Of a DNA stretch of 64,000 nucleotides, positions 21,979 to 46,238 are shown piece after piece; the stretch's first letter is position 1; every line of letters begins with the position of its first letter. Under the pieces are notes generated by a model. That model saw nothing but the letters and a program-made list of their open reading frames with translations, did no database searches and was not told the origin of the DNA. Source of the stretch: Opitutia bacterium (GTDB lineage: Bacteria; Verrucomicrobiota; Verrucomicrobiia; Opitutales; T3Sed10-336); the NCBI GenBank assembly GCA_050506795.1, contig JBJHCF010000006.1, positions 89,442-153,441 on the forward strand, in the 5' to 3' direction. The position numbers were made by a program, and so were the translations under genes.

Positions 21979-24120
21979 ATGAAAACTGAGATATCCACTT
22001 TCTGCAAAGAGTTCGGCGACGTTTTATCCCCTTTCCGGCAAATGCTTCAGAATACGGTGGAGGATATTCAGGAGGAGCCCGAAAGTCACGCCTTGCGCCA
22101 CCCTTTGTCCGGACTGTCCGACGTGGCGCACCGACTCCATACCCTGGTGGATAAACTCGAACAGCAGCAGGCGTACGTGATTATTTTCGGCCCATTGAAG
22201 AGCGGGAAATCCACGCTGATGAACGCCATCAGTTCCGCGTACGTCAGTGAGGTGACGTCCCTTCCGGCCTACCCCTGCCTGGTTTACGTCAAACACAGCG
22301 AAGAGAAAAAGTACCAGTATACCAGTTACAACGGGAAAAAAGAGCTGACGGCCGACGGGGCCTACATGCAGCGGGCGATCCGCGACGCCCACCAGACCCT
22401 GGCCGAGAGGATTCGGCAGATGGAGGAAAAGGGCGAGCCGTTCGATCCGGGGATTCACTTTCCGGAAGCGATTCGCCGGGTCGACGTCGAGGTGCCGGCC
22501 AAGAATCTGAAGGATTCGCTGACGGTGCTGGTGGACACGCCCGGCCTGTACAGCAAAATGAAGTTCGGTTACGACCTGATGACCAGGGAGTTTCGAAACA
22601 GCGCCGCGTGTGCGGTCTTTGTGGTCAAGACCGACAATCTGTTCCTTGAGCAGGTTTTCGCTGAGTTCAATGACCTTCTCGATCTGTTCAGCCGGATCTT
22701 TCTGGTGGTCAATATCGACGGCGGCAAACGCGACCTCGGTCCGGACGGCAATTTGCGGCCCAGCCTGGAAAGCGAGAATCCCGATCGCATCATCCGGGCT
22801 TTCGAATCGCTGGCTATGAGCGCTCCCCTGCGTCGCGCGGCCGACGAGGGGCGTTTGCGCATTTACCCGATCGACCTTTTGCGCTCGGCCGCCGCTTCGC
22901 TGCAAAACGGGGAGAATGGCGAGTCCGCGGATGGAAACGACGAGGGTTCCCCGGAGTCGCGGCCCGACGATTCGTTTTCCGAGTTCCTTACCGACCTCAC
23001 CGATTATCTCAACAGCAGCGACTATCTGGTTGAGTTCATGGCCGACAGCTTGCGACAGGGGGCCGGACTGGCGGAGGAAGTGCAGCGCTGCTGCTCGGAG
23101 GAGTCGTTGCGCAGCTTTCAGCAGGAGCGGTCCTGGCTGGAGGACGAGATGCAGCGCGAGCGCGGGCGTTTGGCCGCGGTGGAGAGGCTGGCCAATCTCA
23201 ACTGGGAAAAGGCCTTTGACGACCTGCGCGCCAAGAGCCGCAAAGCCGCCGATGCTTTTTCCGACAAACTGAAAGGCGAATTACGCGGGTCTCTGACTCA
23301 GGAAGTGGTGTCCTGGTTCGATTCCGACGAGAGCCTGCGCGACTTGCAGGAAGGCCGTTTGAATCCCTTGTTGACCGCGAAGGAGAAGGAGATCAAGGCG
23401 CACGCCGTCGATCGGATCCACTCGCTCGCCGGCGACTCCCTGGGAGGCTTGCGCCTGGAACCGGATGACCTGCGGGCGTTGGATCGCCTTGATCTCAAGC
23501 TTGAGCCGATCCTGGAAGCGGCCGGGGAAGAGGTGTTGGCCGCCGGACGCGATCCCGCCTCCTGTGCGGTGCATGTTTCCAGCGAGAAGATTCCGGTTAA
23601 GAAAAGTGTCTGGGACTGGATTCTTTTTCGCGGGCAGTCGGCGGTACGCCGCGGGCTTTTCGGTCCGACGGAGGATCCCGAACGTCCCATTCCGCACGCG
23701 ACCAAGAGAAAGCGTCTGGCCGACCCGGGCAGCGAAGCCTTGCACTCCATCCTGGATACGCACCTGAAAAAACTCTTTCCTGATTTGCCCAGCGAGTATT
23801 GCGATCACCTGTTGAGCGAATTCATCCGGATTTTCTCCGCCGCGGTTCGCCAACGGGTGGAGGCGGTGAAGGAGGAACTGGGAACCAAAATGCCCGACCT
23901 CGAAAATCGTCTCGAGGCCAATAAACGGGTGCGCGCCCGCCTCAAGAGGATCAGCGACCTGGCTTCGCAGGTTCGGACCTCGGTGGTCGACCTCAAGGAC
24001 CGGCACAGCAGCCTGGTGACCGCCGCGGTGGCGGGCGAGGATGATGAGGCGCAACCGGAGGAATCGGGTGCCGGCGAAGACGAAGCAGATGCCGGCGAAG
24101 ATGAAACTGAGCGAAGCTGA
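21979..24120 (+). CDS. Dynamin-like GTPase with a long helical C-terminus
   Basis: G1 GPLKSGKSTLMNAI, G3 LVDTPG, then about 400 aa predicted helical/coiled-coil and an acidic tail. Confidence 0.85.
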   Translation: MKTEISTFCKEFGDVLSPFRQMLQNTVEDIQEEPESHALRHPLSGLSDVAHRLHTLVDKLEQQQAYVIIFGPLKSGKSTLMNAISSAYVSEVTSLPAYPCLVYVKHSEEKKYQYTSYNGKKELTADGAYMQRAIRDAHQTLAERIRQMEEKGEPFDPGIHFPEAIRRVDVEVPAKNLKDSLTVLVDTPGLYSKMKFGYDLMTREFRNSAACAVFVVKTDNLFLEQVFAEFNDLLDLFSRIFLVVNIDGGKRDLGPDGNLRPSLESENPDRIIRAFESLAMSAPLRRAADEGRLRIYPIDLLRSAAASLQNGENGESADGNDEGSPESRPDDSFSEFLTDLTDYLNSSDYLVEFMADSLRQGAGLAEEVQRCCSEESLRSFQQERSWLEDEMQRERGRLAAVERLANLNWEKAFDDLRAKSRKAADAFSDKLKGELRGSLTQEVVSWFDSDESLRDLQEGRLNPLLTAKEKEIKAHAVDRIHSLAGDSLGGLRLEPDDLRALDRLDLKLEPILEAAGEEVLAAGRDPASCAVHVSSEKIPVKKSVWDWILFRGQSAVRRGLFGPTEDPERPIPHATKRKRLADPGSEALHSILDTHLKKLFPDLPSEYCDHLLSEFIRIFSAAVRQRVEAVKEELGTKMPDLENRLEANKRVRARLKRISDLASQVRTSVVDLKDRHSSLVTAAVAGEDDEAQPEESGAGEDEADAGEDETERS

Positions 24121-24176
24121 TTTTAGCTTTGTCACCAAAACTGGTTTGTCACCGTAATATCCTTGTCCAATCCGAA

Positions 24177-25553
24177 ATGCCCATGCAAGATTCCCGCGCC
24201 GTGAAAGACCTGATCGAAGAAACCGCCGGATCCGTTCAGGATCTTTATCGTAAGTCAATTGATCCTCTGGCGAAGAAATTCGCTTTTGAGAAGCGGCCGG
24301 TGGACGGCGAAATTTCCGGGGGGCCGCTGGTCCTGTTCGTGGGGAATCATTCCTCGGGCAAATCGACCTTTATCAACCACCTGCTGGGAGAGGCGGTGCA
24401 ACGTACGGGAATGGCGCCCACGGATGATTGTTTCACTCTTCTTCGGTATGGGAAAAACCGGGAAGAGCGTGACGGGCGGGCGATTGTTTCCAACCCGGAT
24501 CTGCCTTTCAGCGGCGCCGCCCATATCGGGCCGGAGTTTCTTTCGCACTTCAGGATGCGGCTCCTCCCCAACGAGTTTCTGCGTGACATCACCCTGGTTG
24601 ACACTCCGGGCATGATCGACGCCGCCGGTCCCGACACCACGAGGGGGTACAATTTTTCCGCCGGGGTGAGGTGGTTCGCCGAGCGGGCGGATCTCGTTTT
24701 GGTGTTCTTTGATCCTGACCGGCCGGGTACGACAGCCGAGACTATGACCGAGCTGACCCAATCCCTCGGACGCATCGACCACAAGCTCTTGGTGGTGATG
24801 AACAAGATGGATCAGTTTCGCAGTCTGCGCGATTTTGCCCGCTGTTACGGCACTCTGTGCTGGAATTTGGGTAAGGTGATCGCGAAAAAGGATATTCCCC
24901 AGATCTTCACCACCTTTGTGCCGGTGAAAGGCGCGGCGGAATCCGCGCTGTCGCTGACCGATTTCGCCCACGCCAGGGAAGAACTGGTTTACGAAATCAA
25001 GCGCGCTCCGGTGCGCCGGTTGGACAACATCATTACCCAGGCTTCCATTTACGGCCGCCGGTTGAAACTCTACGTGCATATCATTCATGCGACCCGGCAG
25101 AAACTGACCGGTTTTCGCCGCCGGCTCTACGCCTTGCTCGTGGTGATTCTGGCCGCCGGCCTGGGTTCGGGGGCCTACCTGGCGAGTCAGGAGATGTGGC
25201 CCGCGGCGGTCGGGGCGGCGGTCGCGGGATTGGTGCTGGCTGTCGGCGGGTATTTCGGTTTTCGCGAACTGGTTCGCCGCCGGGAGGCCAAACTGCTGGA
25301 CGACCTCGACGGGATTTTCGAACGGGTTTACAAGCGTGATCTGGTGGTGAGTAACCGGGAGGATGATCTCCTGCTTCTCTGGAAAGACGTCAAGGATTCG
25401 ATCGTATGGACGGTTAAGAACCTCGGTCTTTTGTCGCTGCCGCGACTAAAACGTTCCGAACTGAACCGGATTGAAGATACGTTGACCAAACAGCTTCCCG
25501 ATCTCCGCGCCAAGCTGCACCGCAAGCTGGAATCGAAACCCACCGGGTTCTGA
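24177..25553 (+). CDS. EHD/sarcalumenin-like dynamin-superfamily NTPase with a C-terminal TM hairpin
   Basis: GNHSSGKSTFINHLL, APTDDCF, LVDTPGMID, RGYNF..VRWFAERADLVLVFFD, VVMNKMD, ARCYGTLCWNLGKV; two adjacent hydrophobic helices. Confidence 0.85.
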   Translation: MPMQDSRAVKDLIEETAGSVQDLYRKSIDPLAKKFAFEKRPVDGEISGGPLVLFVGNHSSGKSTFINHLLGEAVQRTGMAPTDDCFTLLRYGKNREERDGRAIVSNPDLPFSGAAHIGPEFLSHFRMRLLPNEFLRDITLVDTPGMIDAAGPDTTRGYNFSAGVRWFAERADLVLVFFDPDRPGTTAETMTELTQSLGRIDHKLLVVMNKMDQFRSLRDFARCYGTLCWNLGKVIAKKDIPQIFTTFVPVKGAAESALSLTDFAHAREELVYEIKRAPVRRLDNIITQASIYGRRLKLYVHIIHATRQKLTGFRRRLYALLVVILAAGLGSGAYLASQEMWPAAVGAAVAGLVLAVGGYFGFRELVRRREAKLLDDLDGIFERVYKRDLVVSNREDDLLLLWKDVKDSIVWTVKNLGLLSLPRLKRSELNRIEDTLTKQLPDLRAKLHRKLESKPTGF

Positions 25554-26419: not shown

Positions 26420-28267
26420 TTATTCCACCGTGACCGATTTCGCCAGGTTGCGCGGCTTGTCCACATCGCAACCCCGCTGCACCGCGATGTGGTAGCTGAG
26501 GAGTTGCACCGGGATGGTGGCCAGGATCGGCTGAATGGCTTCGTGGGAATCCGGAAGCAGAATAAGGTCGTCGACCAGATTGTCCGGAAAGGGGTCGCTC
26601 TCCGACGCGACGGCGATGACCTTGCCGTTGCGGGCCTTGATCTCCTGAATATTGGCCAGAACCTTCTGGAACGTTTCGGCGTGCGGTGCCAGGAAGAATG
26701 ACGGGCACTGTTCGCTGATCAAGGCGATCGGGCCGTGTTTCATTTCCGCGGCGGGATACCCCTCGGCGTGAATGTAGGAAATCTCCTTAAGTTTCAGTGC
26801 GCCTTCGAGAGCGATGGGAAACATAAACTGCCGGCCGAGGAAGAGCATGTCCTCATAATGGGCGTAGCGTGAAGCGATGTCGCGAATGTGATCGTTTTGC
26901 CGCAGGATGCGATTCACCAGTTCGGGAACGCTCTTGAAGGCCTGTACCAGAGCGGTGCCCTCGGAATAACTCATGTCGCGCAGCCGGCCCAGGTAGAGGG
27001 CCACCATGGCGGCCAGGAGCAACTGCGAGGTGAATGCCTTGGTCGAAGCCACGCCGATCTCCGGCCCCACGTGCTGGTAAATGCCCCCGTCGGCCTCGCG
27101 GGCGATGGTGGAACCGACCACGTTGGTGATGGCCAGGGTGCGAAATCCCTTACGCTGGGCCTCCCGCTGGGCGGCCAGGGTGTCGATGGTTTCCCCGGAT
27201 TGGCTGATGATAAAAACCAGGGTGTTCTTTTCCAGCGGGGCGTTTCGGTAGCGGAACTCGGAGGCGTATTCGACCTCCACCGGAATGCGCGCGTAGCGTT
27301 CGATGAGGTATTCCGCCATCAGGCAGGCGTGCCAGGCGGTGCCGCAGGCGCAGAAGAGGAGCCGGTCCACCTGACGCCATTCCTGCGGGGAGAGGTTGAG
27401 TCCACCGAAATTGGCGCTGCTGCCGTCGTCGGAAAACCGGCCCCGCATGGTGTTCTCCAGAGAAACCGGCTGCTCGAAAATCTCCTTCTCCATGAAGTGG
27501 TTGTAAACCCCCACCTCCGCGTCCTCGATCGACCAGTCGATGGTGGAGATGATGGGGGACACGTCCTCCAGGTTGATGGTGGAAATGGAGAAGTTGCTCC
27601 GGTTGATGGCGACGATTTCGTTGTCTTTAAGGTAGACGACGTTCTGGGTGCGGGAAATGACAGCGGAAACATCGCTTGCCAACAGGTGCTCGCCGTCGCC
27701 GATGCCCACGATCAGGGGCGAGCCGCGGCGCGCGCCGATTAACTGGTCGGGATGCTCGGAGCAAATCACGGCGATCCCAAAGGTGCCTTCGATATGTTTC
27801 AGGGTCTTGCGAACGCTTTCCACAAAACGAATTTCGTGGTCGGAGGTCTCCTTTTCGTAGTGGTAGCTGATGAGGTTGACCAGCACCTCGGAATCGGTCT
27901 CCGAAGAGAAAGTGAAGCCCTGTTCGAGGAGAAAACGTTTAATGCTAAGGTGATTTTCGATTACCCCGTTGTGGACCAGCGAGATTTTGCCGTTGCTGCT
28001 GAGGTGGGGGTGGGCGTTGGCGTCGGTGACCCCTCCGTGAGTAGCCCAGCGGGTGTGGCTGATACCGAGCGTTCCGGACAACGTGTGCTTGGAGGCGGCG
28101 GCCGCCAGGTTGTCCACCCTGCCGATCTTCTTGACGGTCTCGAGGCGGCCCCGGTTTTGCACCGCCAGTCCGGCGGAGTCATAACCGCGATATTCCAGCC
28201 GTTTCAACCCCTCCAGCAGGATGCCGGAAGCCTTCTGCTTGCCGATGTAGCCTACGATTCCGCACAT
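26420..28267 (-). CDS. glmS: Glutamine-fructose-6-phosphate transaminase
   Basis: MCGIVG, LEYRGYDSAG, HTRWATHG, SQSGET, PRNLAKSVTVE. Confidence 0.98.
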   Translation of the reverse strand: MCGIVGYIGKQKASGILLEGLKRLEYRGYDSAGLAVQNRGRLETVKKIGRVDNLAAAASKHTLSGTLGISHTRWATHGGVTDANAHPHLSSNGKISLVHNGVIENHLSIKRFLLEQGFTFSSETDSEVLVNLISYHYEKETSDHEIRFVESVRKTLKHIEGTFGIAVICSEHPDQLIGARRGSPLIVGIGDGEHLLASDVSAVISRTQNVVYLKDNEIVAINRSNFSISTINLEDVSPIISTIDWSIEDAEVGVYNHFMEKEIFEQPVSLENTMRGRFSDDGSSANFGGLNLSPQEWRQVDRLLFCACGTAWHACLMAEYLIERYARIPVEVEYASEFRYRNAPLEKNTLVFIISQSGETIDTLAAQREAQRKGFRTLAITNVVGSTIAREADGGIYQHVGPEIGVASTKAFTSQLLLAAMVALYLGRLRDMSYSEGTALVQAFKSVPELVNRILRQNDHIRDIASRYAHYEDMLFLGRQFMFPIALEGALKLKEISYIHAEGYPAAEMKHGPIALISEQCPSFFLAPHAETFQKVLANIQEIKARNGKVIAVASESDPFPDNLVDDLILLPDSHEAIQPILATIPVQLLSYHIAVQRGCDVDKPRNLAKSVTVE

Positions 28268-30351: not shown

Positions 30352-30730
30352 GACCGAATACGCCAGCCGAATAGTCTGCCTGACGTTTGCCCTGATTTTC
30401 CTGGCCGGCGCCACCGGCCTGGCCACCGTATGGATGCGGCAGAGTATCGGCGCCGCCGCTGCCGAGACCCGATCCATGGAGATTCGCCTCAACGAAGTCG
30501 ATCGCGCCCTGTCGCGAATCAATTCGGAAATCGCGGTCAGCCTGAATCCGGGATTTCTCCAGAGTCAGATCGAACGGTTCAACCTGGACCTGCGCCGTCC
30601 CGACGACGAGCAGATCGTGCGGTTGGACGCGCCGCGTTTGCCGGATCGGGACTACGCGGCCGGAGATGGGTCGAATTCCTCCTCCGATCGTATGGCTTTC
30701 CGCCGTGAAGGTTTAATCACCAACCGATGA
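30338..30730 (+). CDS. ftsL: FtsL-like cell division protein
   Basis: Single TM followed by a coiled coil, located between rsmH and ftsI. Confidence 0.7.
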   Translation: MKSFKTEYASRIVCLTFALIFLAGATGLATVWMRQSIGAAAAETRSMEIRLNEVDRALSRINSEIAVSLNPGFLQSQIERFNLDLRRPDDEQIVRLDAPRLPDRDYAAGDGSNSSSDRMAFRREGLITNR

Positions 30731-32511
30731 CGCCGGCACACGTATCATCTTTTCGACTGGGTCTGGTCGGATTCGTCGTTGCCACCTGCTTCTGCGGCAT
30801 CGGCTTCCGCCTCTATCACCTTCAGGTGGTCGAGTCCGACTCGCTGGCCGCCTTCGCCGACGGGCACCGTAAGCAGGTTATCGTGCAAAAGGCGCGCCGC
30901 GGCACCATCACGGACCGCCGGGGCAATCTCCTGGCGGCTGACCGGACGTTCATCGAACTGGGCGTGGATCCCCAGGTGGTGCGGGAGGAGGATCGCGACC
31001 GCTGGCCCGAACTGGCGCGTATTATCGATATGCCCCTGAATCAGTTGGAGCGTCTCATGACCACCCGGGTTAGCGCCGGGAATTCCGGGTACGCGGAAGA
31101 CGTGCGTTTGGTGCGTTGGAGGAAGTTACAGGACGGTCTGGATGAATCCACTTATGAGAAAATCCTGGAGCTCGGCATTCGCGGAGTTTACGGCAACCGG
31201 CATTACCGGAGGGTTTACCCGGGACGGGAACTCGCCGCGCACGTGGTCGGTTTCTCCAATCGGGAGGGCCGGGGGATTATCGGGGTGGAACACGCGATGG
31301 ATTTCTACCTGCGCGGGACTGACGGCTGGCTGGAGTCCGAGCGGGACGGCCGCCGGCGCGAATTGATGCAGTTTCGCAGCCGCGAGGTTCCGGCCACCAA
31401 CGGTTTGAACATCGAGTTGACCCTCGATAACGTGGTGCAGTTCATCGTGGAGCGTGAATTGCGACGGATCGCGGAAACCTTCGACCCCAAAGGCGCCGTC
31501 ATCATCGTGAGCGAACCCGATACCGGGAATATTCTCGGGTTGGGCAGCTATCCTTCCTTCGATCTCAACCACTACAATCTCGTGGATATCGCCCATCACC
31601 GCAACCTGGCGGTGACCGATGTCCTGGAGCCCGGATCGACCTTCAAGATCGTCCCGGTTGCCGCCGCCCTTGAGGAGGGTCTGGTGACTCCGCATCGGAT
31701 TTTCGATTGCGGGGTTTCCGTGGTGGAATACCGGGGCCGGCGTCTGAGCCTGCCGCGGGACCACCGTGACTTCGGCGAACTTTCGGTGGCGGATATCGTG
31801 CGGGTATCCAGCAATCGCGGCGTCGCTTATATGGGAATGATGCTCGGGGAACAGCGGCTGCACGCCTATTCCGCGGCCTTTGGCTTTGGCCAAAGGACCG
31901 GGTTCCCCCTGGCGGGAGAGGTGCGGGGCACGCTGCATCCGGTGCGCAATTGGGATGGATTGACCATTACCCGGCTCCCGATGGGGCACGCTCTGAACGC
32001 GACTCCCTTGCAGATTCACTACGCCACGGCCACCCTGGCCAACGGCGGCGTCCTGATGGAACCGCGGGTGGTCCGGCGGGCGGTGAACGAGAGGGGAGAG
32101 ACCGTGTTCTCCCTTGATCCGGCGGCTCGTCAGCGGGCGGTTTCGATGGAAACGGCATCGCTGTTGTCCGAATTGCTGGTGGCGGCGGCCGCACCCGGAG
32201 GGACCGCGCCGGAGGCTCGGATTCCAGGATATGAAGTGGCCGGGAAGACCGGGACCACGCAGAAAATCATCGATGGACGGTATTCGCGCCAACACCACGT
32301 GGCGTCGTTTTCCGGCTATTTTCCAGCCTCCAATCCCCGCGTGGTCATCACGGTGATCGTCGACGAGCCGAATTCCGCGGGCCCGTCCTACGGCGGGTTG
32401 GTGGCGGCGCCCAGTTTCCGGCGGGTTGGGGTCGAGTTGATCCCCTATCTCGGCATTGAGGCGGTCCGGCCGGATGCGGTTCTGGCTCAGCGGGAAGGAG
32501 GATTTCGATGA
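30727..32511 (+). CDS. ftsI: Class B penicillin-binding protein (FtsI)
   Basis: RRGTITDRRG; STFK (SxxK), SSN (SxN) and KTGT are all intact. Confidence 0.95.
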   Translation: MTPAHVSSFRLGLVGFVVATCFCGIGFRLYHLQVVESDSLAAFADGHRKQVIVQKARRGTITDRRGNLLAADRTFIELGVDPQVVREEDRDRWPELARIIDMPLNQLERLMTTRVSAGNSGYAEDVRLVRWRKLQDGLDESTYEKILELGIRGVYGNRHYRRVYPGRELAAHVVGFSNREGRGIIGVEHAMDFYLRGTDGWLESERDGRRRELMQFRSREVPATNGLNIELTLDNVVQFIVERELRRIAETFDPKGAVIIVSEPDTGNILGLGSYPSFDLNHYNLVDIAHHRNLAVTDVLEPGSTFKIVPVAAALEEGLVTPHRIFDCGVSVVEYRGRRLSLPRDHRDFGELSVADIVRVSSNRGVAYMGMMLGEQRLHAYSAAFGFGQRTGFPLAGEVRGTLHPVRNWDGLTITRLPMGHALNATPLQIHYATATLANGGVLMEPRVVRRAVNERGETVFSLDPAARQRAVSMETASLLSELLVAAAAPGGTAPEARIPGYEVAGKTGTTQKIIDGRYSRQHHVASFSGYFPASNPRVVITVIVDEPNSAGPSYGGLVAAPSFRRVGVELIPYLGIEAVRPDAVLAQREGGFR

Positions 32512-34079
32512 TCAGTTATGTGCCTGTCGTCCGGCGCCGATCTGAGCGTCGTAATTCCGGTGTCCGGCGTGGACAAAACAATGAAGCTCGGAGACATTCC
32601 TTCATGGAGAAACCTCTAAAAACGATCCTGACCGGTTTGGATGTGACCAGCGCGAGCGGGCGACTGGATCGGTCGATCGATTTCCTCGCCACCGACAGCC
32701 GGCGGGCGGGGCCGGGGTGTCTCTTCTTCGCTTTGCCCGGGAAGAAGACCGACGGCAGCTTTTTCATCGAGGAAGCGATCGATCGCGGTGCGGCCGCGGT
32801 GGTGACCGAGCAGCCCCGGCGTCCGCATTCCGGAGTCGCCTTTATCCAGGTGCCGGATGCGCGTGTGGCCATGGCGCAGGTGGCGCGCAGGTTTTTCAAG
32901 TTTCCGGACGAATCCCTCGCCCTGTGCGGCATCCTCGGCGCACGGGGCAAGTCGACCGCGGCCCACCTGCTCAAACATCTGCTGGACGCCGCCGGGGGGA
33001 GGACCGGACTCACCGGCAGTATCGCCTATGACCTGGGATCCCGCACGGTGCCCTCTTTTCTGACCACCCCCGACGCGGTGGAACTGTCCGGCCTCCTGGG
33101 ACAGATGCGCGATGCCGGGGTGCGCGAGGCGGTGATCGAAATAAACGGCATGGGGCTGCGCCAGAAGAGCGTTTTCGGCCTGCGCTGGAAGGCGGGCGTT
33201 TTTCTTAACGGTGCCATGGGCAGGGCATCGGAAGAAGTTCCCACCGAGACCGATTTCAAACTCGCGCGCGAGCTTTTCCAGGGATCTCTCGGAGGCCCGC
33301 CGGAGATTGCGGTCATCTGCTCGGATGATCCCCTGGGCCGGGAATTGATCGCCTCCAATCCGGCGTCGGTCCGTCTGGTGACCTTTGGTTCGACCGAGGG
33401 TGCGGATATTCGGGCGGTTCGGATCGTGCCCGGTCCGGATTCGAGCCGTATCACGCTCGCCTGGCCGGAGGGCGAAACGGAGATTCTACTGCCGCTGACC
33501 GGCGCGACCAACGCCGCCAACTTCCTCGGCGCCGCCGCGGCGGCCTACGCGTTGGGTCGGGATCCCGCCACATTCGCGCACGCCCTGGCCCGGTTCTCCG
33601 GGGTGCCCGGACGAATGGAGCGAGTCGATAACGGGCAGGACTTTCGGGTTTTTGTGGACCACGGACACACCGCCAACCGTTTGCGCGCCACCCTGGCGGC
33701 GCTGCGGGAGGTCACCCAGGGCCGGATCCTGGTGGTTTTTGGTTGCGGGGGGAATCGCGACCGCGCCGTCCGGGCCGAGTTGGTCGAGCGGATCCAGCAA
33801 CAGGCCGATTTTTTCTGGGCCACCGCCGACAATACCCGGGGCGAAAGCCTGGAGCAGATCTTCTCCGATATGAAACCAGGGGTGATCGATCCCGCTCGGA
33901 TCTCGTTTGTCTCCGAGCGCCGGGAGGCAATCCGTCAGGCTTTCGAGGAGGCCGAAGAAGGTGATGCCGTACTGCTTGCCGGCAAGGGAAACGAGTCTTT
34001 CCTTGAGATGGGCGACACTTTGTTGCCCTTTGACGATCGAATGGTGGCGAGGGAACTTCTGTCCCTGCCCAGAACATGA
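32508..34079 (+). CDS. murE: MurE-like Mur ligase with several signature motifs substituted
   Basis: Three-domain MurE layout (DSR..LFFAL, TTP, PGRME, VFGCGGNRD, AGKG) in the murE position, but GILGARGKST, EINGMGLRQKS, LNGAMGRASEE, VDHGHTA and DNTR replace the canonical motifs. Confidence 0.85.
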   Translation: MISYVPVVRRRSERRNSGVRRGQNNEARRHSFMEKPLKTILTGLDVTSASGRLDRSIDFLATDSRRAGPGCLFFALPGKKTDGSFFIEEAIDRGAAAVVTEQPRRPHSGVAFIQVPDARVAMAQVARRFFKFPDESLALCGILGARGKSTAAHLLKHLLDAAGGRTGLTGSIAYDLGSRTVPSFLTTPDAVELSGLLGQMRDAGVREAVIEINGMGLRQKSVFGLRWKAGVFLNGAMGRASEEVPTETDFKLARELFQGSLGGPPEIAVICSDDPLGRELIASNPASVRLVTFGSTEGADIRAVRIVPGPDSSRITLAWPEGETEILLPLTGATNAANFLGAAAAAYALGRDPATFAHALARFSGVPGRMERVDNGQDFRVFVDHGHTANRLRATLAALREVTQGRILVVFGCGGNRDRAVRAELVERIQQQADFFWATADNTRGESLEQIFSDMKPGVIDPARISFVSERREAIRQAFEEAEEGDAVLLAGKGNESFLEMGDTLLPFDDRMVARELLSLPRT

Positions 34080-34122: not shown

Positions 34123-35595
34123 ATGCCCGAATTCAACGCAGCACAATTGGCCGAGTGGTCCGGGGGAACCTGGACCCGCGAGCCGCAGGGACCAATCACC
34201 GGGTTTTCCCACGATTCCAGACGGATAAAGACCGGCGAGATGTTCGTGGCGCTGGCCACATCCTCCCGGGACGGGCATGAATACCTGGAGGACGCCCGCG
34301 AGCATGGCGGGTCCGCCGCCCTGGTCACCCGCGCGGTGCCGGGGTCGCCCCTTCCGCAGTTGGTGGTGGACGATGTGCTGTCCGCGCTGCACCGGATGGC
34401 GACCGGAAATCGCGACCGATTTCGGGGACCGGTGATCGGTGTGACCGGAAGCTGCGGCAAAACCTCCGCCAAAGATCTCTTGGCCGAATTGCTGGCCTTT
34501 ATGGGGCCGGTTCTCCGTACTTCGGGAAATTTCAACAACCACATCGGTGTTCCGCTGACCCTGCTGCAACTGGATCCCGCTTACCATCGCGCCGCGGTGG
34601 TGGAAGCCGGAATCAATGCTCCGGGGGAAATGCGCGTTCTGGCAGGGTTGATTCGCCCGACGCACGGAATGGTCACCAACGTGGCGCCCACTCATCTGGA
34701 AGGATTGAATAACCTCGCCGCGGTGGCCGAGGAGAAGAGTCTGCTTCTGCACGCGGTTCCGCCGGAAGGGGTGGTCGCTTTTCCGGCTACCTGTCTGGCG
34801 TTTCCGGGTTTCTGGCGTTTGCGTTGCCGGTCGCTGGTGACCGAGGACGAATCCGCGACCCCGCCCGCCGCGCAGAGGTTTCTGAGTGGGCTGATGCCCG
34901 AATTTTCCTCCGAGCTGTTGGTGTCGCCGCGCAATCGCGCAACCTTTTTCCGCGAAGGGGAAGGGCGCGCCGCCCATCTCCGGGTGCGTTTTCCTCGCGA
35001 GGGGCGCCTCGTTTCCTTCGAGGCGGGCACCCTGAGTCCGGGAATGGCGGCCAACGCCGTCCTGGCCATGATGCTGGCGCGTGTGCTGGGAGCGGATGAC
35101 CGGGCGCTGGCGATCGGGCTTTCCTGTTGGCAGCCTGACGCCTTGCGCGGCCGGGCCTTTCGGACGGAATCCGGCTTTTATTATCTCGACTGCTATAATT
35201 CCAGTCCCATGGCCCTGGTCGACGCCCTGGAGGCGTTCAACCGTGCCGCGCCCAAGGGAATGGCGCGACTCTACATCCTTGGTTCCATGGCCGAGCTGGG
35301 ACGTTACGCCAACGTCTTTCACCAGGAGACCATGCGATTTCTCAAATTGGAGGAGAACGACTTTGCCTTGCTGATCGGCGATCACGCCGCCGCCATGGGC
35401 GAGGGTCTCGCCCTGGCGGGCAACGATTCCTCGCGGTGGAGCGTGGAGGATTCCTGGGAAAACGTTCGCACGCGTTATGCCACATTTCGCGGAGCGGTGT
35501 TTGTCAAGGGCAGTCGCCGGTATCGTCTGGAACGTCTCTTGGAGGAAACTCCGGCTGCGCCGGGACACTGCTCCGGAAAGGAAGTGGCATGCTGA
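34123..35595 (+). CDS. murF: UDP-MurNAc-peptide:D-Ala-D-Ala ligase MurF
   Basis: GVTGSCGKT, NFNNHIGVPLTL, GEM, HLEG, DCYNSSP, LGSMAELG, VKGSR. Confidence 0.94.
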   Translation: MPEFNAAQLAEWSGGTWTREPQGPITGFSHDSRRIKTGEMFVALATSSRDGHEYLEDAREHGGSAALVTRAVPGSPLPQLVVDDVLSALHRMATGNRDRFRGPVIGVTGSCGKTSAKDLLAELLAFMGPVLRTSGNFNNHIGVPLTLLQLDPAYHRAAVVEAGINAPGEMRVLAGLIRPTHGMVTNVAPTHLEGLNNLAAVAEEKSLLLHAVPPEGVVAFPATCLAFPGFWRLRCRSLVTEDESATPPAAQRFLSGLMPEFSSELLVSPRNRATFFREGEGRAAHLRVRFPREGRLVSFEAGTLSPGMAANAVLAMMLARVLGADDRALAIGLSCWQPDALRGRAFRTESGFYYLDCYNSSPMALVDALEAFNRAAPKGMARLYILGSMAELGRYANVFHQETMRFLKLEENDFALLIGDHAAAMGEGLALAGNDSSRWSVEDSWENVRTRYATFRGAVFVKGSRRYRLERLLEETPAAPGHCSGKEVAC

Positions 35596-36689
35596 GCTAC
35601 CTGGCCGAGTTGGAGGAACTTTTCGGTCCCTTCCGGCTTTTCCGTTACATCACCTTTCGTGGATTGCTCGCGGCCGGGACGGCTCTTTTTATCGGCTTCG
35701 TCATGGGCCCGTGGCTCATCGCTCGCCTGAAAGCCCTCAGTTTCGAGCAGAGTTTGCGCACCCGGGAAGAGGTCGGGGACCTGGCCGGACTGCACTCGAC
35801 GAAAAAGGACACTCCCACCATGGGCGGGCTCCTGATTCTGGCCTCGGTGACGGTCAGCACGCTTCTCTGGGCGAGGCCCAATATCTGGGTGCTGGTGGCT
35901 CTCTTTGTGTTTCTGGGACTGGGGCTTCTCGGGTTCGCCGACGATTACCTCAAGGTGTCGCGGCGCAACAGCAAAGGGGTTTCGGGGAAACGAAAAATTC
36001 TTTGGCAAAGCGCGGTGGCGGTTATCGCGCTGAGCGCCTTATTGCTGCATCCGGAGAGCGCGGAGAAAGTGCGCGAATTGTGGGTCCCGTTTGTCAAAGA
36101 CGCCGTCATGACGGCGTCGCCGCTCTGGTTTCTTTTTCCGTTCTTTTTCCTTGTGATCATCGGCTCCAGCAACGCCATCAACCTGACCGACGGAATCGAC
36201 GGCCTGGCCATCGGTTGCACCATTATCGTGGGACTGGTTTACGCCGTCATGGCCTACGCCGCCGGGAACATTATTATTTCCGAGTACCTTTTCATCAGCT
36301 ACGTGCCCGGAACCGGGGAGTTGAGCATTGTATGCGGCGCCCTGGTGGGCGCGGGACTGGCCTTTTTGTGGTACAATTCGCATCCGGCCGAGGTTTTCAT
36401 GGGCGACACCGGATCACTGGCGCTGGGGGGAATCGTTGGGGCCGTGGCCTTTATGGTGCACCAGCCGCTTACGCTGGTGATTGTGGGCGGAATTTTCGTG
36501 ATGGAGGCGGTCTCCGTCATCCTGCAGGTGGTATCGTTCAAGAGCCGCGGAAAGCGGATCTTTCGTATGGCCCCGATTCACCACCACTTCGAGCTTAAAG
36601 GGTGGTTTGAAACCAAGGTGGTCGTGCGTTTCTGGATACTTTCGCTGGTCTTTGCGATCATCGGTCTGGGAACGCTTCGTTTGCGATGA
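35589..36689 (+). CDS. mraY: Phospho-MurNAc-peptide translocase
   Basis: KKDTPTMGG, DDY, NLTDGIDGLA, FMGDTGSLALGG, MAPIHHHFE. Confidence 0.97.
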   Translation: MLSYLAELEELFGPFRLFRYITFRGLLAAGTALFIGFVMGPWLIARLKALSFEQSLRTREEVGDLAGLHSTKKDTPTMGGLLILASVTVSTLLWARPNIWVLVALFVFLGLGLLGFADDYLKVSRRNSKGVSGKRKILWQSAVAVIALSALLLHPESAEKVRELWVPFVKDAVMTASPLWFLFPFFFLVIIGSSNAINLTDGIDGLAIGCTIIVGLVYAVMAYAAGNIIISEYLFISYVPGTGELSIVCGALVGAGLAFLWYNSHPAEVFMGDTGSLALGGIVGAVAFMVHQPLTLVIVGGIFVMEAVSVILQVVSFKSRGKRIFRMAPIHHHFELKGWFETKVVVRFWILSLVFAIIGLGTLRLR

Positions 36690-36690
36690 G

Positions 36691-36951
36691 ATGACTATCA
36701 ACGAATTTCAGAACCAGAAAAAGTCCGGCCGCGGAACGCCCGGTTTTGCGGTGGTTTTTGTTTGCGCTGTGATCACTCCATTCCGAAAATGGCAAAATTA
36801 CTCGCGCGGCCGGAGATTGGCCGCATCGGGTTTCGAGGACGCTTCCGGAGGGCGGACCATGCCGACCGGTTGCAGGACAGAAGTAAAACACGGACTTTTA
36901 AAGGAGAATTCACAGTGCAGACAGTTATGGGGAGGTATAGGAATCTTATGA
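36691..36951 (+). pseudogene. Possible eroded murD remnant or small hypothetical ORF (86 aa)
   Basis: Starts 1 nt after the mraY stop and overlaps the next ATG. MTINEFQNQKK resembles a MurD N-terminus and TPGFA..NYSRGRR weakly resembles the MurD C-terminal SP.FASF..Y..RG motif. Confidence 0.3.
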
Positions 36952-38060
36952 AAACGCCAAAAGTGTTCGCGGCCGTTTTAGCCGTTCACCTGCTGGCCTT
37001 TTCGCTATTGTTCGTCCAGCAGGGATGTCAAACCGTGTCGCCGGAAGAGCGAATGGACCGGACGCGTCCACCCGCGCCCTCTGAGCGGCAGTTGGAACGG
37101 GCGGATTATCAGCCCCGCCCGGCGTCGGAAACGACGGCCGGTGAGCCGGCGCAGCCCCGCTGGTCCGCACCGGTGCGTCCGGGAGCGACCGGGTTGGGGG
37201 ATCTGGAGCCGCTGGAAACAGCGCGGGTCGAGGAGGAAGCAGACGTTTTGGCTCCGGTTACCGACTGGCAAGACCCCGAACCGTTCGAAGAGATGGATTG
37301 GGGTTTTGGCACGGATGATACCCGCACTTACACGGTGCGGAGCGGCGACAACCTCTGGAATATCTCGCGTCGCGAGGGGGTGGCCATGGATGATCTCTTG
37401 GCCGCGAACAATCTGACCCGTGAATCGATCATCCGTCCCGGACAGCAATTGAGCATACCTGCCGGAAGCGGCGGTGTCGTTCGGCCCCGGGAAGAGGTCA
37501 CTCCTCCGCCAGCGCGGCCGGTTGAAATCCCCGAAGGTGCGGGAACCTATACCGTGCAGCGCGGCGACTCGCTGTCCGTGATCGCTCAGCGGTACAACAC
37601 CACGGTCCGGGACCTGATGGCGGTCAACAACTTGACCAGCGACACCATCCGCATCGGCCAGGAACTCATTCTGCCCGACGCGTCGGCCGAGCCTTCGACA
37701 CCTGCCACCCCCGCATCCCGGCCCGAGCCCGATGCCGGGAATGGGGTTCGGCACACCGTGGTGAGCGGGGAGACCCCGGGAAGCATCGCCAATCGGTACG
37801 GGATTTCGACCAACGAACTCATGAGCGCCAACAACATCAGCGATCCGCGGCGTATGCGGGTGGGTCAGGTGCTGGTGATTCCCGGCGTTGAGGAGGAATC
37901 CGACGAACCGGCGGCGCAGCCGGATGCTCCGGCGCAACCGTCCCAGACCGCGCTGCCGGTCGTTCCGGTGCAGCCGGATGATATGATTTTTATCGAGGAC
38001 GAGGATGATGACGACGAGGATGATATCCCCTTCGTGCCCATCATTCCGGATGACGAATGA
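36948..38060 (+). CDS. Exported protein with three LysM domains and an acidic tail
   Basis: Hydrophobic leader ending QQGC; YTVRSGDNLWNI, YTVQRGDSLSVIA, HTVVSGETPGSIA; tail EDEDDDDEDD. Confidence 0.93.
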   Translation: MKTPKVFAAVLAVHLLAFSLLFVQQGCQTVSPEERMDRTRPPAPSERQLERADYQPRPASETTAGEPAQPRWSAPVRPGATGLGDLEPLETARVEEEADVLAPVTDWQDPEPFEEMDWGFGTDDTRTYTVRSGDNLWNISRREGVAMDDLLAANNLTRESIIRPGQQLSIPAGSGGVVRPREEVTPPPARPVEIPEGAGTYTVQRGDSLSVIAQRYNTTVRDLMAVNNLTSDTIRIGQELILPDASAEPSTPATPASRPEPDAGNGVRHTVVSGETPGSIANRYGISTNELMSANNISDPRRMRVGQVLVIPGVEEESDEPAAQPDAPAQPSQTALPVVPVQPDDMIFIEDEDDDDEDDIPFVPIIPDDE

Positions 38061-38082: not shown

Positions 38083-39243
38083 ATGGCGACCCGCTCAGCA
38101 GAACGACTTTCGCTTGCCGGAATATTTCAACCGGGGGTGATTATCCTGGTGTGCGTGGTCAGCCTGACGGTCTTTGGCATCAGCGTGTTGTTCAGTGCCA
38201 GCGCCCACTCGGGCGCGGATCCTTATTTCTTTATCCGCCGTCAGTTTATGTGGCTGGCGGTGGCGGTGGCGACGGGAGTTTTTGTGTCCCTGCTGGACCT
38301 GGAGGCCTTGCGGCGGTTCTCCTGGCCAGTGTTGTTGGTCTCGGTGGCCGGCCTGGTGCTGGTGTTGATCCCGGGAATCGGGGTTGAGGTCAACGGCGCC
38401 CGGCGCTGGATCGATCTCGGGTTCATGCGTTTGCAGGTTTCCGAGTTCGCCAAGCTGGGGCTGGTTTTCTGTTTGGCTTGTTACCTCGGGGCGAACCACC
38501 GCGTTATTCCGACCTTCTGGCACGGGTTTGTTTTGCCCTGTCTGCTCATTGGTTTGTTCGCCGGGCTGATTTTCCTCGAGCCGGATTATGGAACCGCGGC
38601 CCTTTGCGGGGCGGTGGGTTTCACCCTTCTGTTTCTGGCCGGGGTACGCCTGATTTTCCTGGTTCCGGCCTGTACCGCGGCTTTGGCGGCCTTCGCTTTC
38701 GCGGTGTTCACCAATCCGTTGCGTCGGGGGCGGATCATGTCCTTCATGGATATCGAAGGCAACCGCGGTGAAGGCGCCTACCAGTTGTGGCAGGCCATCC
38801 TGGCGTTTGGCGCCGGCGGTGTCGAAGGAGTGGGGCTGGGGAATGGTCGCCAACAGATGGCTTTTCTTCCGGAAGCCCATACCGACTTTATTTTCGCCGT
38901 GATCGGCGAGGAACTGGGTTTTCTCTTTACCACCGGAGTGCTCCTGCTCTTTCTGATCCTTTTCATCGCCGGAATCCTGCATTTGAAACGGGCGCCCAAT
39001 ATGTACCAGTACCTGCTGGTTGCGGGAGGGCTGTTGCTGCTCAGCACCCAGGCGCTGATCAACATGGGGGTGGTGACCGGCTGTTTGCCCACCAAGGGGT
39101 TGTCCCTGCCATTCATCAGTTACGGCGGTTCCAACCTGGTGGCCATGTTTATCATTGTCGGCATCCTGGTGAATACGTCTTTGACCTGGTCCCGCTCGCC
39201 GATTTGCGACAAACGGCGTAAACTCAAGGAGATTGCCCGGTGA
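38083..39243 (+). CDS. ftsW: SEDS peptidoglycan polymerase FtsW
   Basis: NGARRWI, QVSEFAK, EPDYG, LPEAHTDFIF, PTKGLSLPFISYGGS. Confidence 0.96.
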   Translation: MATRSAERLSLAGIFQPGVIILVCVVSLTVFGISVLFSASAHSGADPYFFIRRQFMWLAVAVATGVFVSLLDLEALRRFSWPVLLVSVAGLVLVLIPGIGVEVNGARRWIDLGFMRLQVSEFAKLGLVFCLACYLGANHRVIPTFWHGFVLPCLLIGLFAGLIFLEPDYGTAALCGAVGFTLLFLAGVRLIFLVPACTAALAAFAFAVFTNPLRRGRIMSFMDIEGNRGEGAYQLWQAILAFGAGGVEGVGLGNGRQQMAFLPEAHTDFIFAVIGEELGFLFTTGVLLLFLILFIAGILHLKRAPNMYQYLLVAGGLLLLSTQALINMGVVTGCLPTKGLSLPFISYGGSNLVAMFIIVGILVNTSLTWSRSPICDKRRKLKEIAR

Positions 39244-40391
39244 TGAAGATCCTGATTTCCTGCGGAGGAACGGGTGGTCATCTGGCGCCCGGAATTGCCC
39301 TGGCTGAAGGTCTGGTCTCGCGCGGGCACGCTTGCCGGCTATTGATCAGCGAGAAAAAGGTGGACCGGCGTCTGGTCAGCAAATACCCGGCGCTCGATTT
39401 CATCCCGGTGGCGGGGGCGCCGTTTTCGCTGCATCCGGTCCGGTTCTTCCAATTCCTGGTGAATCAGGCGCGCGGGCTGCTGCAGTCAGTGCGCCTGGTG
39501 CGGACGTTCGGTCCCGACCTGATCATCGGATTCGGGGGGTTCAGCACCCTGGGTATCGCGCTGGCGGGGTTTTTCCTGCGGGTTCCTCTGGTCCTGCACG
39601 AGGCCAACCGGGTGCCCGGACGAGCCACCCGGTTTTTGCGCCCACTGGCTTCGCGGGTGTACCTGCCTCCCGGTGTGAGGCTGAGCAATGTGAGCCCGGA
39701 GACCATCCGCCATTACGGCTGCCCGGTGCGCCGGGAGATCCATCGTTGCCCGGTGAAATCGAGCCGCAAAACCCTGGGAATCGATCCGCACGGCAAGGTC
39801 CTGGCGGTCCTGGGGGGAAGTCAGGGGGCCTCCGTTCTCAATGCCTGGGTGCGCGAGCATTTCCAGGCCCTGGCGAATGAGGGCATTCATGTTTATTGCG
39901 TGACCGGTATGGACAAGGGAGACTCCGGATCGGTGCGCCTTTGGTCGAAAGACGGGCACCCGATAAAAGCCCATTTTGTGCCGTTTACCGACCGAATGCC
40001 CGAATTGCTCTCAGCGGCCGACCTGGTGGTCAGCCGGGCCGGGGCCGGGACCATTAACGAACTTATTCGCTGCCGGGCGCCGTCCATTCTGATTCCCTAT
40101 CCCTACGCGGCGGATAACCACCAGTGGGCCAACGCGGTTTTTGTGGAGCGCCAGGGTGGCGGAATCGTCGTCGGTCAGGATTATATCCACACCCTGCACG
40201 GGGAGGTGGTGGACACCATTTTCAACGACTGGTTGCTGAAAACCTTCCAGACCAACCTGGAACGGATGGATCGCCGGGATTGCCTGAACGCCATTATCAA
40301 GGATCTCGAAGGTCTGGTGGAGGCGGCGGGAAAAAACGGCCGTGATGCTCGCATGACTCCCTCGTTGCGCAACCATTTCAGCCAGGCATGA
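39240..40391 (+). CDS. murG: Lipid I N-acetylglucosamine transferase
   Basis: GGTGGHLAPG, HEAN, GGSQGA, SRAGAGT, DNHQWANA. Confidence 0.96.
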   Translation: MMKILISCGGTGGHLAPGIALAEGLVSRGHACRLLISEKKVDRRLVSKYPALDFIPVAGAPFSLHPVRFFQFLVNQARGLLQSVRLVRTFGPDLIIGFGGFSTLGIALAGFFLRVPLVLHEANRVPGRATRFLRPLASRVYLPPGVRLSNVSPETIRHYGCPVRREIHRCPVKSSRKTLGIDPHGKVLAVLGGSQGASVLNAWVREHFQALANEGIHVYCVTGMDKGDSGSVRLWSKDGHPIKAHFVPFTDRMPELLSAADLVVSRAGAGTINELIRCRAPSILIPYPYAADNHQWANAVFVERQGGGIVVGQDYIHTLHGEVVDTIFNDWLLKTFQTNLERMDRRDCLNAIIKDLEGLVEAAGKNGRDARMTPSLRNHFSQA

Positions 40392-41356
40392 ACGCCCTTT
40401 CGTCCATTAAGCAGCCCGCCGAAATTTCTTCGGATTTCGTTTCCGCGGTCGAAGCGTCGCTCAGTTCCGAATCCAGGTTTTCCCACCATGAGCCCCTGGC
40501 CGACAAAACCACACTGAGGGTGGGCGGTGAGGCTCTATATTACGCGGAACCGGCATCGATCGAGGATCTTAGTGCGATTCTGCGGTGCGCGGTCCGGTGC
40601 GGAATTCCGGTGCTTTTGCTGGGTCGAGGGTCGAACGTGGTGGTGCCCGATGACGGAGTGGACGCCTTGGTCTTGCGGTTGCAGCACCCTTGCTGGCGTC
40701 AAATCAGTGTTGCTCAGGACGGTCGCGTGCGGGTGGGCGCTGGGGTGCGTTTGCGCCAGCTCTGCGGCGAAGCGTGTCGACAGGGCATGGCGGGTCTGGA
40801 GTTTCTGGAAGGTATCCCGGGCACCGTGGGCGGTGCACTGCGGATGAACGCCGGTGCCATGGGCGGCTGGATTTTTGATCTGGTGGAGGAGGTGCGCATG
40901 ATGACCTGGGACGGTAACGAGCGGACCTTTCGGCGGGAGGAGATGCATTACGGTTACCGCAATTGCCGGGAACTCGCGCGAGCGATCGCCTTGGAAGCGG
41001 TCCTGGCGGCGCCCGGCCGTGAACAGGTGGAGGACATTAAACGCCGGCTCAAGGAATACCAGGTTCGGCGGGACCAATCACAGCCCAAGGAATCCAGCGC
41101 CGGCTGTATGTTCAAGAACCCGGAGGGAGATCATGCGGGCCGGTTGATAGACGAATTGGGTCTGAAGGGCGCCCGGGTGGGGGATGCCGAGGTCTCGGGG
41201 GTGCACGCCAATTTTATCATCAATCGCGGCCGGGCGACCGCCGGGGACGTGATCGGACTTGTCCGTCATATACGTCGGGAGGTGCGTCGACAAAAGGACC
41301 TGGACCTGGAGCCTGAAGCCTTGCTTTTTGGCAAGGATTGGAGGGAGGTCCTGTGA
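40388..41356 (+). CDS. murB: UDP-N-acetylenolpyruvoylglucosamine reductase (stand-alone)
   Basis: TTLRVGG, LGRGSN, GIPGTVGGALRMNAGA, SAGCMFKNP, HANFIIN; the ATG overlaps the murG stop. Confidence 0.96.
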   Translation: MNALSSIKQPAEISSDFVSAVEASLSSESRFSHHEPLADKTTLRVGGEALYYAEPASIEDLSAILRCAVRCGIPVLLLGRGSNVVVPDDGVDALVLRLQHPCWRQISVAQDGRVRVGAGVRLRQLCGEACRQGMAGLEFLEGIPGTVGGALRMNAGAMGGWIFDLVEEVRMMTWDGNERTFRREEMHYGYRNCRELARAIALEAVLAAPGREQVEDIKRRLKEYQVRRDQSQPKESSAGCMFKNPEGDHAGRLIDELGLKGARVGDAEVSGVHANFIINRGRATAGDVIGLVRHIRREVRRQKDLDLEPEALLFGKDWREVL

Positions 41357-45776: not shown

Positions 45777-46238
45777 ATGAAAAATGGCTCTGTCGAAAAT
45801 CGTAAAATGAAGAGAATTCTACGGTTGATCTTGTTATGCCTCTTATTTGCGTTTTTGTGGAATATTTCCGCCAGCCTTTACCTCCTTCGTGATGCTAGGA
45901 TGAATACGGCTGTGATTCTTCGCCTTCCCGAAGGGGAGCATCAATTCCGCTTTAGTATTCCTCCCGGAGGGTATTTCGCAGCGCTTGTATATCGTACTGA
46001 TTCTGGGGGGTTCGGGCGAATGTTTTCTTCAGAGATTGAGACTGCGGGTATTGACGTCGTTGTTTCCGTGTTTGATCCGGATACTGGAGAGGTCATGATT
46101 CAAGAAAACATTGAAAGCTTGCCACATTTGCACTTTTCCAGGCGAATGGCATATCGTGAACATGAAATGTCCGTTTTTGTTAAACTACCTGATTCACAAT
46201 TAGATTACGTTTATTTGAGGCTGTCTCCTGGGATTTGA
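45777..46238 (+). CDS. Low-GC hypothetical protein with an N-terminal TM anchor (paralog 1)
   Basis: Basic-hydrophobic N-terminus; shares motifs with the next ORF; visibly more AT-rich than the flanks. Confidence 0.7.
   Translation: MKNGSVENRKMKRILRLILLCLLFAFLWNISASLYLLRDARMNTAVILRLPEGEHQFRFSIPPGGYFAALVYRTDSGGFGRMFSSEIETAGIDVVVSVFDPDTGEVMIQENIESLPHLHFSRRMAYREHEMSVFVKLPDSQLDYVYLRLSPGI

Follow-up and report, generated by a model that had tools for sequence, protein, structure and literature searches.

The stem peptide of peptidoglycan is regarded as having one fixed route, through MurC, MurD and MurE. All three are essential in Verrucomicrobium spinosum (PMC12283558), and the MurD2/MurL pathway of Xanthomonas, an alternative early route to the stem peptide that uses a Mur ligase whose specificity has shifted, still includes MurC, MurE and a MurD-type ligase and bypasses only the glutamate racemase (PMC8788868). 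MurC-E are bypassed altogether in salvage by Mpl, which joins a preformed peptide to UDP-MurNAc (N-acetylmuramic acid linked to uridine diphosphate, UDP), at rates of 260 per minute for the diaminopimelate (DAP) tripeptide, 1.4 for L-Ala-D-Glu and 0.7 for L-Ala (PMC3060825). Here we consider a window of 64,000 nucleotides from an Opitutia bacterium of the order Opitutales (positions 89,442 to 153,441 of contig JBJHCF010000006.1, assembly GCA_050506795.1), in which the murE gene of the division and cell wall (dcw) cluster, called murE1* below, encodes a full-length protein with a degenerate catalytic site. The genome that holds the window (G000; 4.94 Mb, 97.8% complete, our family f1) has lost murC and murD; another MurE, with its catalytic residues intact (MurE2), lies on a different contig, outside the window on which the original prediction for this DNA was based. 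It seems to us rather likely that MurE1* is retained as an inactive structural part, that MurE2 adds meso-DAP, and that Mpl joins the peptide to UDP-MurNAc in place of MurC and MurD; murE1* is likely the visible scar of a rerouted stem-peptide pathway. What is directly observed is the loss of residues and of genes, purifying selection, an intact MurE2 and Mpl, and the repeated co-occurrence of these features.

The gene is a single open frame of 523 amino acids between ftsI and murF, its start overlapping the ftsI stop. Translation could also begin at Met33 (32604); an N-terminal extension of this kind, about 30 residues long and not conserved, is present in most relatives. The frame had been described as full length and uninterrupted; it scores 336 bits against TIGR01085 (cut-off 257). 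The reference set comprised 26 dcw MurE proteins from Opitutales genomes without MurE2, and the 102 positions conserved in at least 25 of them are termed near-invariant. The features of the gene are as follows.

32508-34079, plus strand: murE1*, full-length dcw MurE with a degenerate catalytic site, likely a pseudoenzyme (profile match, AlphaFold model)
32691-32756, plus strand: N-terminal UDP-binding motifs TDSRR ... ALPGKKTDG, intact (0 of 11 near-invariant N-domain positions changed)
32928-32957, plus strand: P-loop GILGARGKST, Gly-Lys kept (Lys148 invariant in 26 of 26 degenerate copies)
33138-33170, plus strand: EINGMGLRQKS, Glu211 kept, SSH and Arg lost (alignment)
33207-33236, plus strand: NGAMGRASEE in place of the DHLDYH Mg2+ loop (alignment; low confidence in the model)
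33264-33266, plus strand: Ala253 in the carbamoyl-Lys column (alignment of intact, degenerate and MurE2 rows)
33768-33770, plus strand: Val421 in the lysine column of RDxxKR (alignment of intact, degenerate and MurE2 rows)
33828-33839, plus strand: DNTR, that is, DNPR with Asp, Asn and Arg kept (alignment)

All seven motif changes listed in the original prediction are present at their alignment positions, among them DFKLARELF (33252-33278), VDHGHTA (33654-33674) and AGKGNE (33978-33995). The change from DNPR to DNTR is real but is the weakest of the losses, since Asp, Asn and Arg are kept, and DNSR occurs in the active-looking sole MurE of another genome, G027. Overlooked at that stage was Lys421Val in RDxxKR, a column that holds Lys in 26 of 26 intact copies, in none of the 26 degenerate copies counted and in 41 of 41 MurE2 rows; the corresponding figures for the carbamoyl-Lys column are 26 of 26, one of 26 and 41 of 41. 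The SSH motif and the Arg of QxR form the contacts to the D-Glu acceptor in MurE, and MurE1* has NGM...S instead. Both features of the second Mg2+ site, the carbamoylated Lys and the DHLD(Y/F)H loop, are missing, their places being taken by Ala253 and NGAMGRASEE. The ATP-site residues Lys148, Glu211, Arg369 and Asp384 are present, and the meso-DAP site retains Arg422 and the Glu of GKGNE along with the three residues of DNTR. MurE1* departs from the reference set at 27 of the 102 near-invariant positions. None of the 11 in the N-terminal domain is affected, against 17 of 43 in the middle domain and 10 of the 48 C-terminal ones; the changes are not scattered drift.

Mutating the carbamoyl-Lys of MurD lowers its activity greatly (PMC4816537); for MurE, that source shows an equivalent requirement only in the title of a cited work. 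By analogy, the acyl-phosphate step would be expected to fail when the carbamoyl-Lys and the Mg2+ loop are both gone. MurE1* would then have no ligase activity and would persist in the cell-wall machinery as a folded structural part that probably binds nucleotide. An AlphaFold model built on a 34-row alignment has the MurE fold, with a mean predicted local distance difference test (pLDDT) of 90.1 and template-modelling (TM) scores of 0.85-0.91 to solved MurE chains among the top ranks. Confidence is low in two stretches, the loop replacing DHLDYH (pLDDT below 50 at model residues 205-213) and model residues 465-473. In the tree MurE1* nests among Opitutales dcw MurE proteins. A predicted MurE1*-MurF complex scored 0.00, which counts neither for nor against contact. 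Assembly error was rejected as the cause of the pattern: Logan contigs of a run that is possibly the source of the DNA carry an identical murE, with no base differences, and relatives show the same pattern. The same contigs, a separate assembly and probably not a separate sample, also span the mraY-lysM and murG-murB junctions.

A genome-wide search of G000 found five Mur-ligase middle domains, those of MurE1*, MurF, FolC, Mpl and MurE2, and neither murC nor murD. The link to an absent murD, drawn originally from the window, is thus borne out genome-wide, and murC is absent as well. The genome retains murA, murB, murF, mraY, murG, ddl and mpl, together with DapF-, DapB- and MurJ-like motifs; murF, mraY, ftsW, murG and ddl are under purifying selection, and lipid II is probably still made. 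Since murC and murD are absent while the downstream lipid II genes are intact, we infer that UDP-MurNAc-tripeptide must have another source. The Mpl of G000 (contig C11, 36724-38160) carries SAFFDKRGK, FGHHPTA and EPRSNT, which place it in the Mpl family, whose published signature is (S/T)AFFDKRSK (PMC3060825) and whose further motifs are FAHHPTA and EPRSNT. Normally a recycling enzyme, it would here make UDP-MurNAc-tripeptide for MurF. G000 holds no MurC or MurD-type gene that could serve a MurD2/MurL pathway, and one motif pattern, the sole search made for MurL, found nothing there.

MurE2 of G000 lies outside the dcw cluster (contig C19, about 35848-37360, minus strand) and is 34% identical to MurE1*. 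The catalytic Glu, SSH, the Arg, DH, the carbamoyl-Lys, RDxxKR, D-N-x-R and GKGHE are intact in 41 of 41 MurE2 rows. In the N-terminal domain 7 of the 11 invariants are lost, and the UDP-binding motifs (DSR, G..xDG), the very ones that MurE1* keeps, have given way, in 39 of 41 rows, to a loop of the type (D/N/E)E(Y/F)LxY(N/G)xW; when the pattern is made stricter, none of 73 other MurE rows matches it. The MurE2 rows looked at have no precomputed match to PF01225, and the MurE2 model (pLDDT 94.9) forms a short beta-hairpin at the replacing loop. In Staphylococcus aureus MurE the uridine-binding site is domain 1 (PMC3829189). Because the D-Glu, Mg2+, ATP and DAP residues are kept while the UDP motifs are replaced by an acidic-aromatic loop, MurE2 may extend a UDP-free acceptor, most likely L-Ala-D-Glu, a proposal to which we give an even chance; acting on free L-Ala-D-Glu, it would hand Mpl its best substrate, and this would explain the rebuilt UDP site. 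In a tree of 74 of the 114 aligned rows (the remainder dropped to thin the set) MurE2 forms one clade (SH-like approximate likelihood ratio test 97), with the Opitutales MurE1 proteins apart (100). This separation rejects an origin of MurE2 as a duplicate of MurE1 and points to arrival by transfer. MurE2 is rare: only 21 cluster representatives among 1.84 billion matched at E up to 1e-10, some of them ordinary MurE, and a metagenome scan gave only 3 loci. Annotation pipelines label both MurE copies ordinary ligases.

An N-domain profile for MurE2 matched 22 of 301 Opitutales genomes, namely G000, five of the eight others in f1, 16 of 24 in a second family, f14, and none elsewhere; full-length searches found MurE2 in 9 of 12 f1 genomes. 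Within f1, murC and murD have both been cleanly excised from unbroken clusters in G000, G002, G003, G004, G006, G007 and G009; in G008 neither gene is lost, and in G005 murC is still there, the place of murD falling on a contig break. In f14, 22 of 29 genomes have two MurE proteins and 7 have one. MurC is found in 7/7 of the single-MurE genomes, and 21 of the 22 with two MurE proteins have no MurC match beyond Mpl. The match in the last of these, G195, falls in a second dcw cluster resembling that of another order; this fragment (L200, contig C5), whose murC-murB and ftsZ are unlike Opitutales copies, is likely a foreign contig in the bin. Among the 18 f14 carrier clusters read, murD is absent from 10 and has altered motifs in 8, and the carbamoyl-Lys is gone from the 7 full-length altered copies. 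Across the order a MurD match (E 1e-40) was found in 262 of 301 genomes and in only 2 of the 22 MurE2 carriers, both degenerate copies. The order-wide MurC search (E 1e-60) misses divergent MurC close to the threshold, such as that of G015 and those of family f3, and some of its 70 non-matches are therefore not losses. murB is retained in 26 of 29 f14 genomes, often relocated; in many carriers the freed gene lies outside the dcw cluster (L203-L217), among nucleotide-sugar and sulfate-activation-like genes. The f14 genus g19 has kept MurD with EVSS changed to an ELGP type and the carbamoyl-Lys lost (L068:8916-10151 in G024, L130:9586-10818, L162-L166), at ratios of non-synonymous to synonymous substitution rates (dN/dS) of 0.05-0.17, indicating purifying selection; it is likely a second Mur pseudoenzyme.

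In both families, then, the carriers of MurE2 have independently shed murC, have either lost murD or kept it in crippled form, and lack the same two MurE1 lysines. Lys253 and Lys421 are the only near-invariant positions lost in both degenerate clades, the carbamoyl-Lys being kept in one of 8 copies from f1 and none of 18 from f14; the MurE1 of G003, where an assembly gap splits the gene, is left out of these counts. A refuting case, an ordinary genome with murC, murD and a single MurE showing the same losses, was sought and none was found, all 26 such proteins keeping the carbamoyl-Lys. In a five-gene tree of 31 genomes the approximately unbiased (AU) test rejects all carriers (with G004) as one clade, p 3e-111, and with it a single shared origin of the MurE2 lineages. 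Because that constraint is rejected, at least two independent events are indicated; the f1 carriers as one clade gave an AU p of 0.22.

Several observations weigh against the reading in which MurE2 and Mpl replace MurC and MurD around an inactive MurE1*. Two or three events underlie the association, not 31 genomes. The MurE1 copies of G003 and G007 keep the carbamoyl-Lys, though not DHLDYH (in G003 DNPR is also lost), and G004 (88% complete), where murC and murD are missing and MurE1 is degenerate, gave no MurE2 match. Genus g22 has a MurC match in 0 of 3 genomes and no MurE2, and keeps MurD. No source of L-Ala-D-Glu was found in G000, where searches for the glutamate racemase MurI, for PgeF and for an ATE-like transferase were all negative, and a homologue of Ala-Glu epimerase does not track MurE2 (weak matches in 2 of 29 f14 genomes). 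Outside the order, among 61 genomes around the proteobacterial G043, MurE2 is the only MurE in five (G043, G315, G343, G350 and G328), in which murC, murD and mpl are present and the dcw cluster runs ftsI-murF with its murE deleted. These five show that MurE2 needs no MurE1* and that the dcw murE can be deleted, and the simplest reading of their gene content is an ordinary UDP-linked MurE. MurE2 likewise occurs together with murC and murD in a Magnetococcales genome, whose 3.5-kb contig showed no PgeF-like gene.

The strongest competing explanation is that MurE2 acts on the ordinary UDP-linked acceptor throughout, as its place beside murC and murD in those five genomes suggests. Mpl accepts L-Ala-D-Glu and L-Ala weakly and, when overexpressed, complements an Escherichia coli murC(ts) mutant (PMC3060825), and genus g22 has lost murC with only Mpl left. 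This explanation leaves unaccounted for the gain of MurE2 with loss of murC and murD, twice, and the conserved acidic-aromatic loop in place of the UDP motifs. Nor does it account for a linked second PgeF: a PgeF/YfiH-like amidase gene lies directly after murE2 in all five proteobacteria (L297:9737-12051, L294, L295, L296, L255), in G043 as a second copy beside an ordinary one, and the four full-length copies aligned keep the catalytic Cys and His and have Pro in place of the specificity Gln. We regard it as unlikely, though well short of negligible. As a separate observation on g22, the one-contig genome of G027, which belongs to this genus, lacks murC, has no ddl in its dcw cluster (L232) and retains murD together with a DNSR-type MurE; in that genome the place of MurC may be taken by Mpl.

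A quite improbable alternative is that MurE1* is slowly decaying and serves mainly as a translated spacer coupling ftsI to murF in the operon. The overlap of its start with the ftsI stop would suit such a role, as would the outright deletion of the dcw murE in the five proteobacteria and the far more eroded copies of G004, G007 and G010. Selection was measured by the method of Nei and Gojobori in 17 pairs, in one of which dS for murE was saturated. When set against MurF, dN is 0.83-1.3 in f1 degenerate pairs against 0.39-0.62 in intact pairs; because the degenerate copies outpace intact ones in this way, constraint on the f1 MurE1* is relaxed, not gone. For G000 against G002, G006 and G009, dN/dS is 0.19, 0.21 and 0.27, values taken at dS of 1.4-1.8, near saturation, which lessens their weight for the reading we favour. 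Four closer f14 degenerate pairs (dS 0.6-0.8) gave 0.09-0.10, and intact MurE pairs 0.04, 0.14 and 0.19. Over the 13 computable degenerate pairs dN/dS is 0.06-0.27, and in 12 it is below or about equal to that of MurF. The original prediction had proposed that a ratio near 1 would mark decay, and by that measure the three G000 pairs speak for selection; neutral decay is rejected. A mere spacer is also hard to reconcile with the 34 positions unchanged in all 26 degenerate copies, ATP residues included (Lys148, Glu211, Arg369, Asp384, Arg422 and Lys493 are among them), and with the retention of murE1* in every cluster read while murC and murD were excised cleanly. MurE1* has thus lost catalytic residues while its frame and fold remain under purifying selection, as expected of a pseudoenzyme.

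More doubtful again is a route that starts from free D-Glu: MurE2 would convert it to gamma-D-Glu-meso-DAP, L-Ala would come from a tRNA-dependent transferase, and the precursor would be completed by Mpl. Aminoacyl-tRNA transferases of the ATE/Bpt family acylate N-terminal Glu or Asp. A gene of this kind is present in 18 f14 MurE2 carriers (four carriers were not covered genome-wide) and in 0 of 7 MurC-bearing f14 genomes; it adjoins murE2 in 13 of the 18, often convergently (L184:8134-8862, L230:1432-2301). Against such a route, the f14 carriers are one clade, so the match amounts to one event, and the gene was found in none of G000, G006, G007 and G009, a weak match in G007 having been rejected as the opposite strand of an ATP synthase gene. 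Racemase-family matches occur in 8 of 29 f14 genomes, only one of them strong. Most f14 genomes, MurD-bearing ones among them, yielded no glutamate racemase. No conserved neighbour of murE2 or mpl was found across f1, and no convincing dipeptide ligase among the ATP-grasp homologues of G000. Motif patterns for AmpD, AmpG, NagZ, AnmK, MurQ, LdcA, Dat and MurL found nothing, a search so crude that it missed expected genes and shows no absence. Scavenging is a possible source of L-Ala-D-Glu in G000. A gene pair there (L095, contig C78, 3947-5937) encodes a DUF1611-type protein and an Ala-Glu epimerase homologue, presumably dgcN-dgcA.

Of the two outcomes first envisaged, pseudoenzyme or re-specified ligase, the former is supported, and a re-specified MurE1* acting on another acceptor, for instance at the MurD step, is very improbable, for although it would suit the retained ATP residues, UDP domain and C-terminal Arg422, D-N-x-R and Glu, and the partly uniform f14 changes (P-loop GKTV in 18 of 18), the replacements vary by lineage, differing in every f1 genome (EING, EIDW, EMDT, EIDA and EIDT at the EVSS site) and bringing many different residues into the carbamoyl-Lys column, and the second Mg2+ site that any acceptor would need is gone, its loop being modelled with low confidence.

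Returning to an inactive MurE1* served by MurE2 and Mpl, a protein-level role is suggested because the gene was kept in every cluster read while the operon shed murC and murD cleanly. A scaffold would be the likeliest such role, since MurE contacts MurF, MurG, MurC and MurD in Bordetella (PMC10214165); by this analogy it is plausible, if a little less than evenly so, that MurE1* is kept for contacts inside a Mur/MurG assembly. A fuller proposal, which we advance tentatively, is that two Opitutales lineages build the stem off the nucleotide: MurE2 would join meso-DAP to free L-Ala-D-Glu (or D-Glu), Mpl would load the tripeptide, MurC and MurD would be gone, and the old MurE (in one genus, MurD) would be a nucleotide-binding pseudoenzyme holding the Mur assembly together, with a PgeF-like amidase feeding the pathway in the proteobacteria and possibly a tRNA-dependent alanyl transferase in f14.

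The dcw cluster of the window runs rsmH, ftsL-like, ftsI, murE, murF, mraY, lysM, ftsW, murG, murB, ddl, ftsQ, ftsA, ftsZ. Most relatives carry murD in the interval from mraY to lysM and have a murC-murB fusion, which is also recorded in PMC5303756. The features around murE1* are as follows.

30727-32511, plus strand: ftsI, stop overlapping the murE1* start
34123-35595, plus strand: murF, motifs as in relatives with the ordinary pathway
35589-36689, plus strand: mraY
36690-36947, no strand: gap of 258 bases at the usual murD place of relatives, bridged by one Logan contig
36948-38060, plus strand: LysM-repeat protein of the Opitutales dcw cluster
38083-39243, plus strand: ftsW
39240-40391, plus strand: murG
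40388-41356, plus strand: stand-alone murB, its start overlapping the murG stop; of the murC-murB fusion seen in relatives, the murC half is missing
41338-42288, plus strand: ddl

The usual FtsZ signature is GGGTG(T/S)G; the FtsZ of the window (44416-45654) has GGGTGGP and scores 242.9 against TIGR00065, below the cut-off of 295.2. Downstream of the cluster an IS1182-family transposase gene (46848-48392) is preceded by two small unannotated membrane-anchored open reading frames (45777-46746). Close upstream, on the opposite strand, is glmS (26420-28267), and two tandem dynamin-family GTPase genes (PF00350) occupy 21979-25553. No mraZ was seen ahead of rsmH among the reading frames scanned.

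A search of the open literature, most subscription papers lying outside its scope, found no description of an Opitutales route without murC and murD, of a bacterial MurE pseudoenzyme or of a MurE2 subfamily. Free-living bacteria that delete two of the three ligases, inactivate the third and keep the downstream genes must use another route or scavenged peptide, which is relevant to the long-standing question of cell walls in the Opitutae (PMC5303756). Two lineages that lost the same two lysines and kept the protein offer a natural test of a Mur-ligase scaffold role apart from catalysis, and, with the genes named, the route can be tested with three purified proteins.

Compared with ordinary MurE, MurE1* shares the ftsI-murF position, the three-domain fold, the P-loop Lys, Glu211, the UDP-domain motifs, Arg422 and D-N-x-R, and is without SSH, the Arg of QxR, DHLDYH and the carbamoyl-Lys; MurE2 has these four and differs in its rebuilt N-terminal domain and its place outside the cluster. 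The angiosperm MurE/PAP11 of the plastid-encoded RNA polymerase (8R6S, 8W9Z, 8XZV), structures of which are among the structural matches to MurE1*, likewise keeps the MurE fold without peptidoglycan ligation (PMC9434261). It belongs to a plant organelle, has an RNA polymerase as its partner and in most copies keeps DNPR, whereas MurE1* is bacterial and the wall genes downstream of it look intact, so that the resemblance likely goes no further than a MurE fold preserved in the absence of ligation. The MurE-MurF chimera and the Mur/MurG assemblies (8F5D; PMC10214165) give a precedent for non-catalytic contacts of MurE with MurF, MurG, MurC and MurD; both halves of the chimera are active, and the excerpted text of that report describes no inactive scaffold copy. 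With Mpl salvage the proposed route shares the joining of a preformed peptide to UDP-MurNAc, and the signature SAFFDKR is present; salvage is known only beside MurC-E, whereas in G000, where MurC and MurD are absent, Mpl would be the only route.

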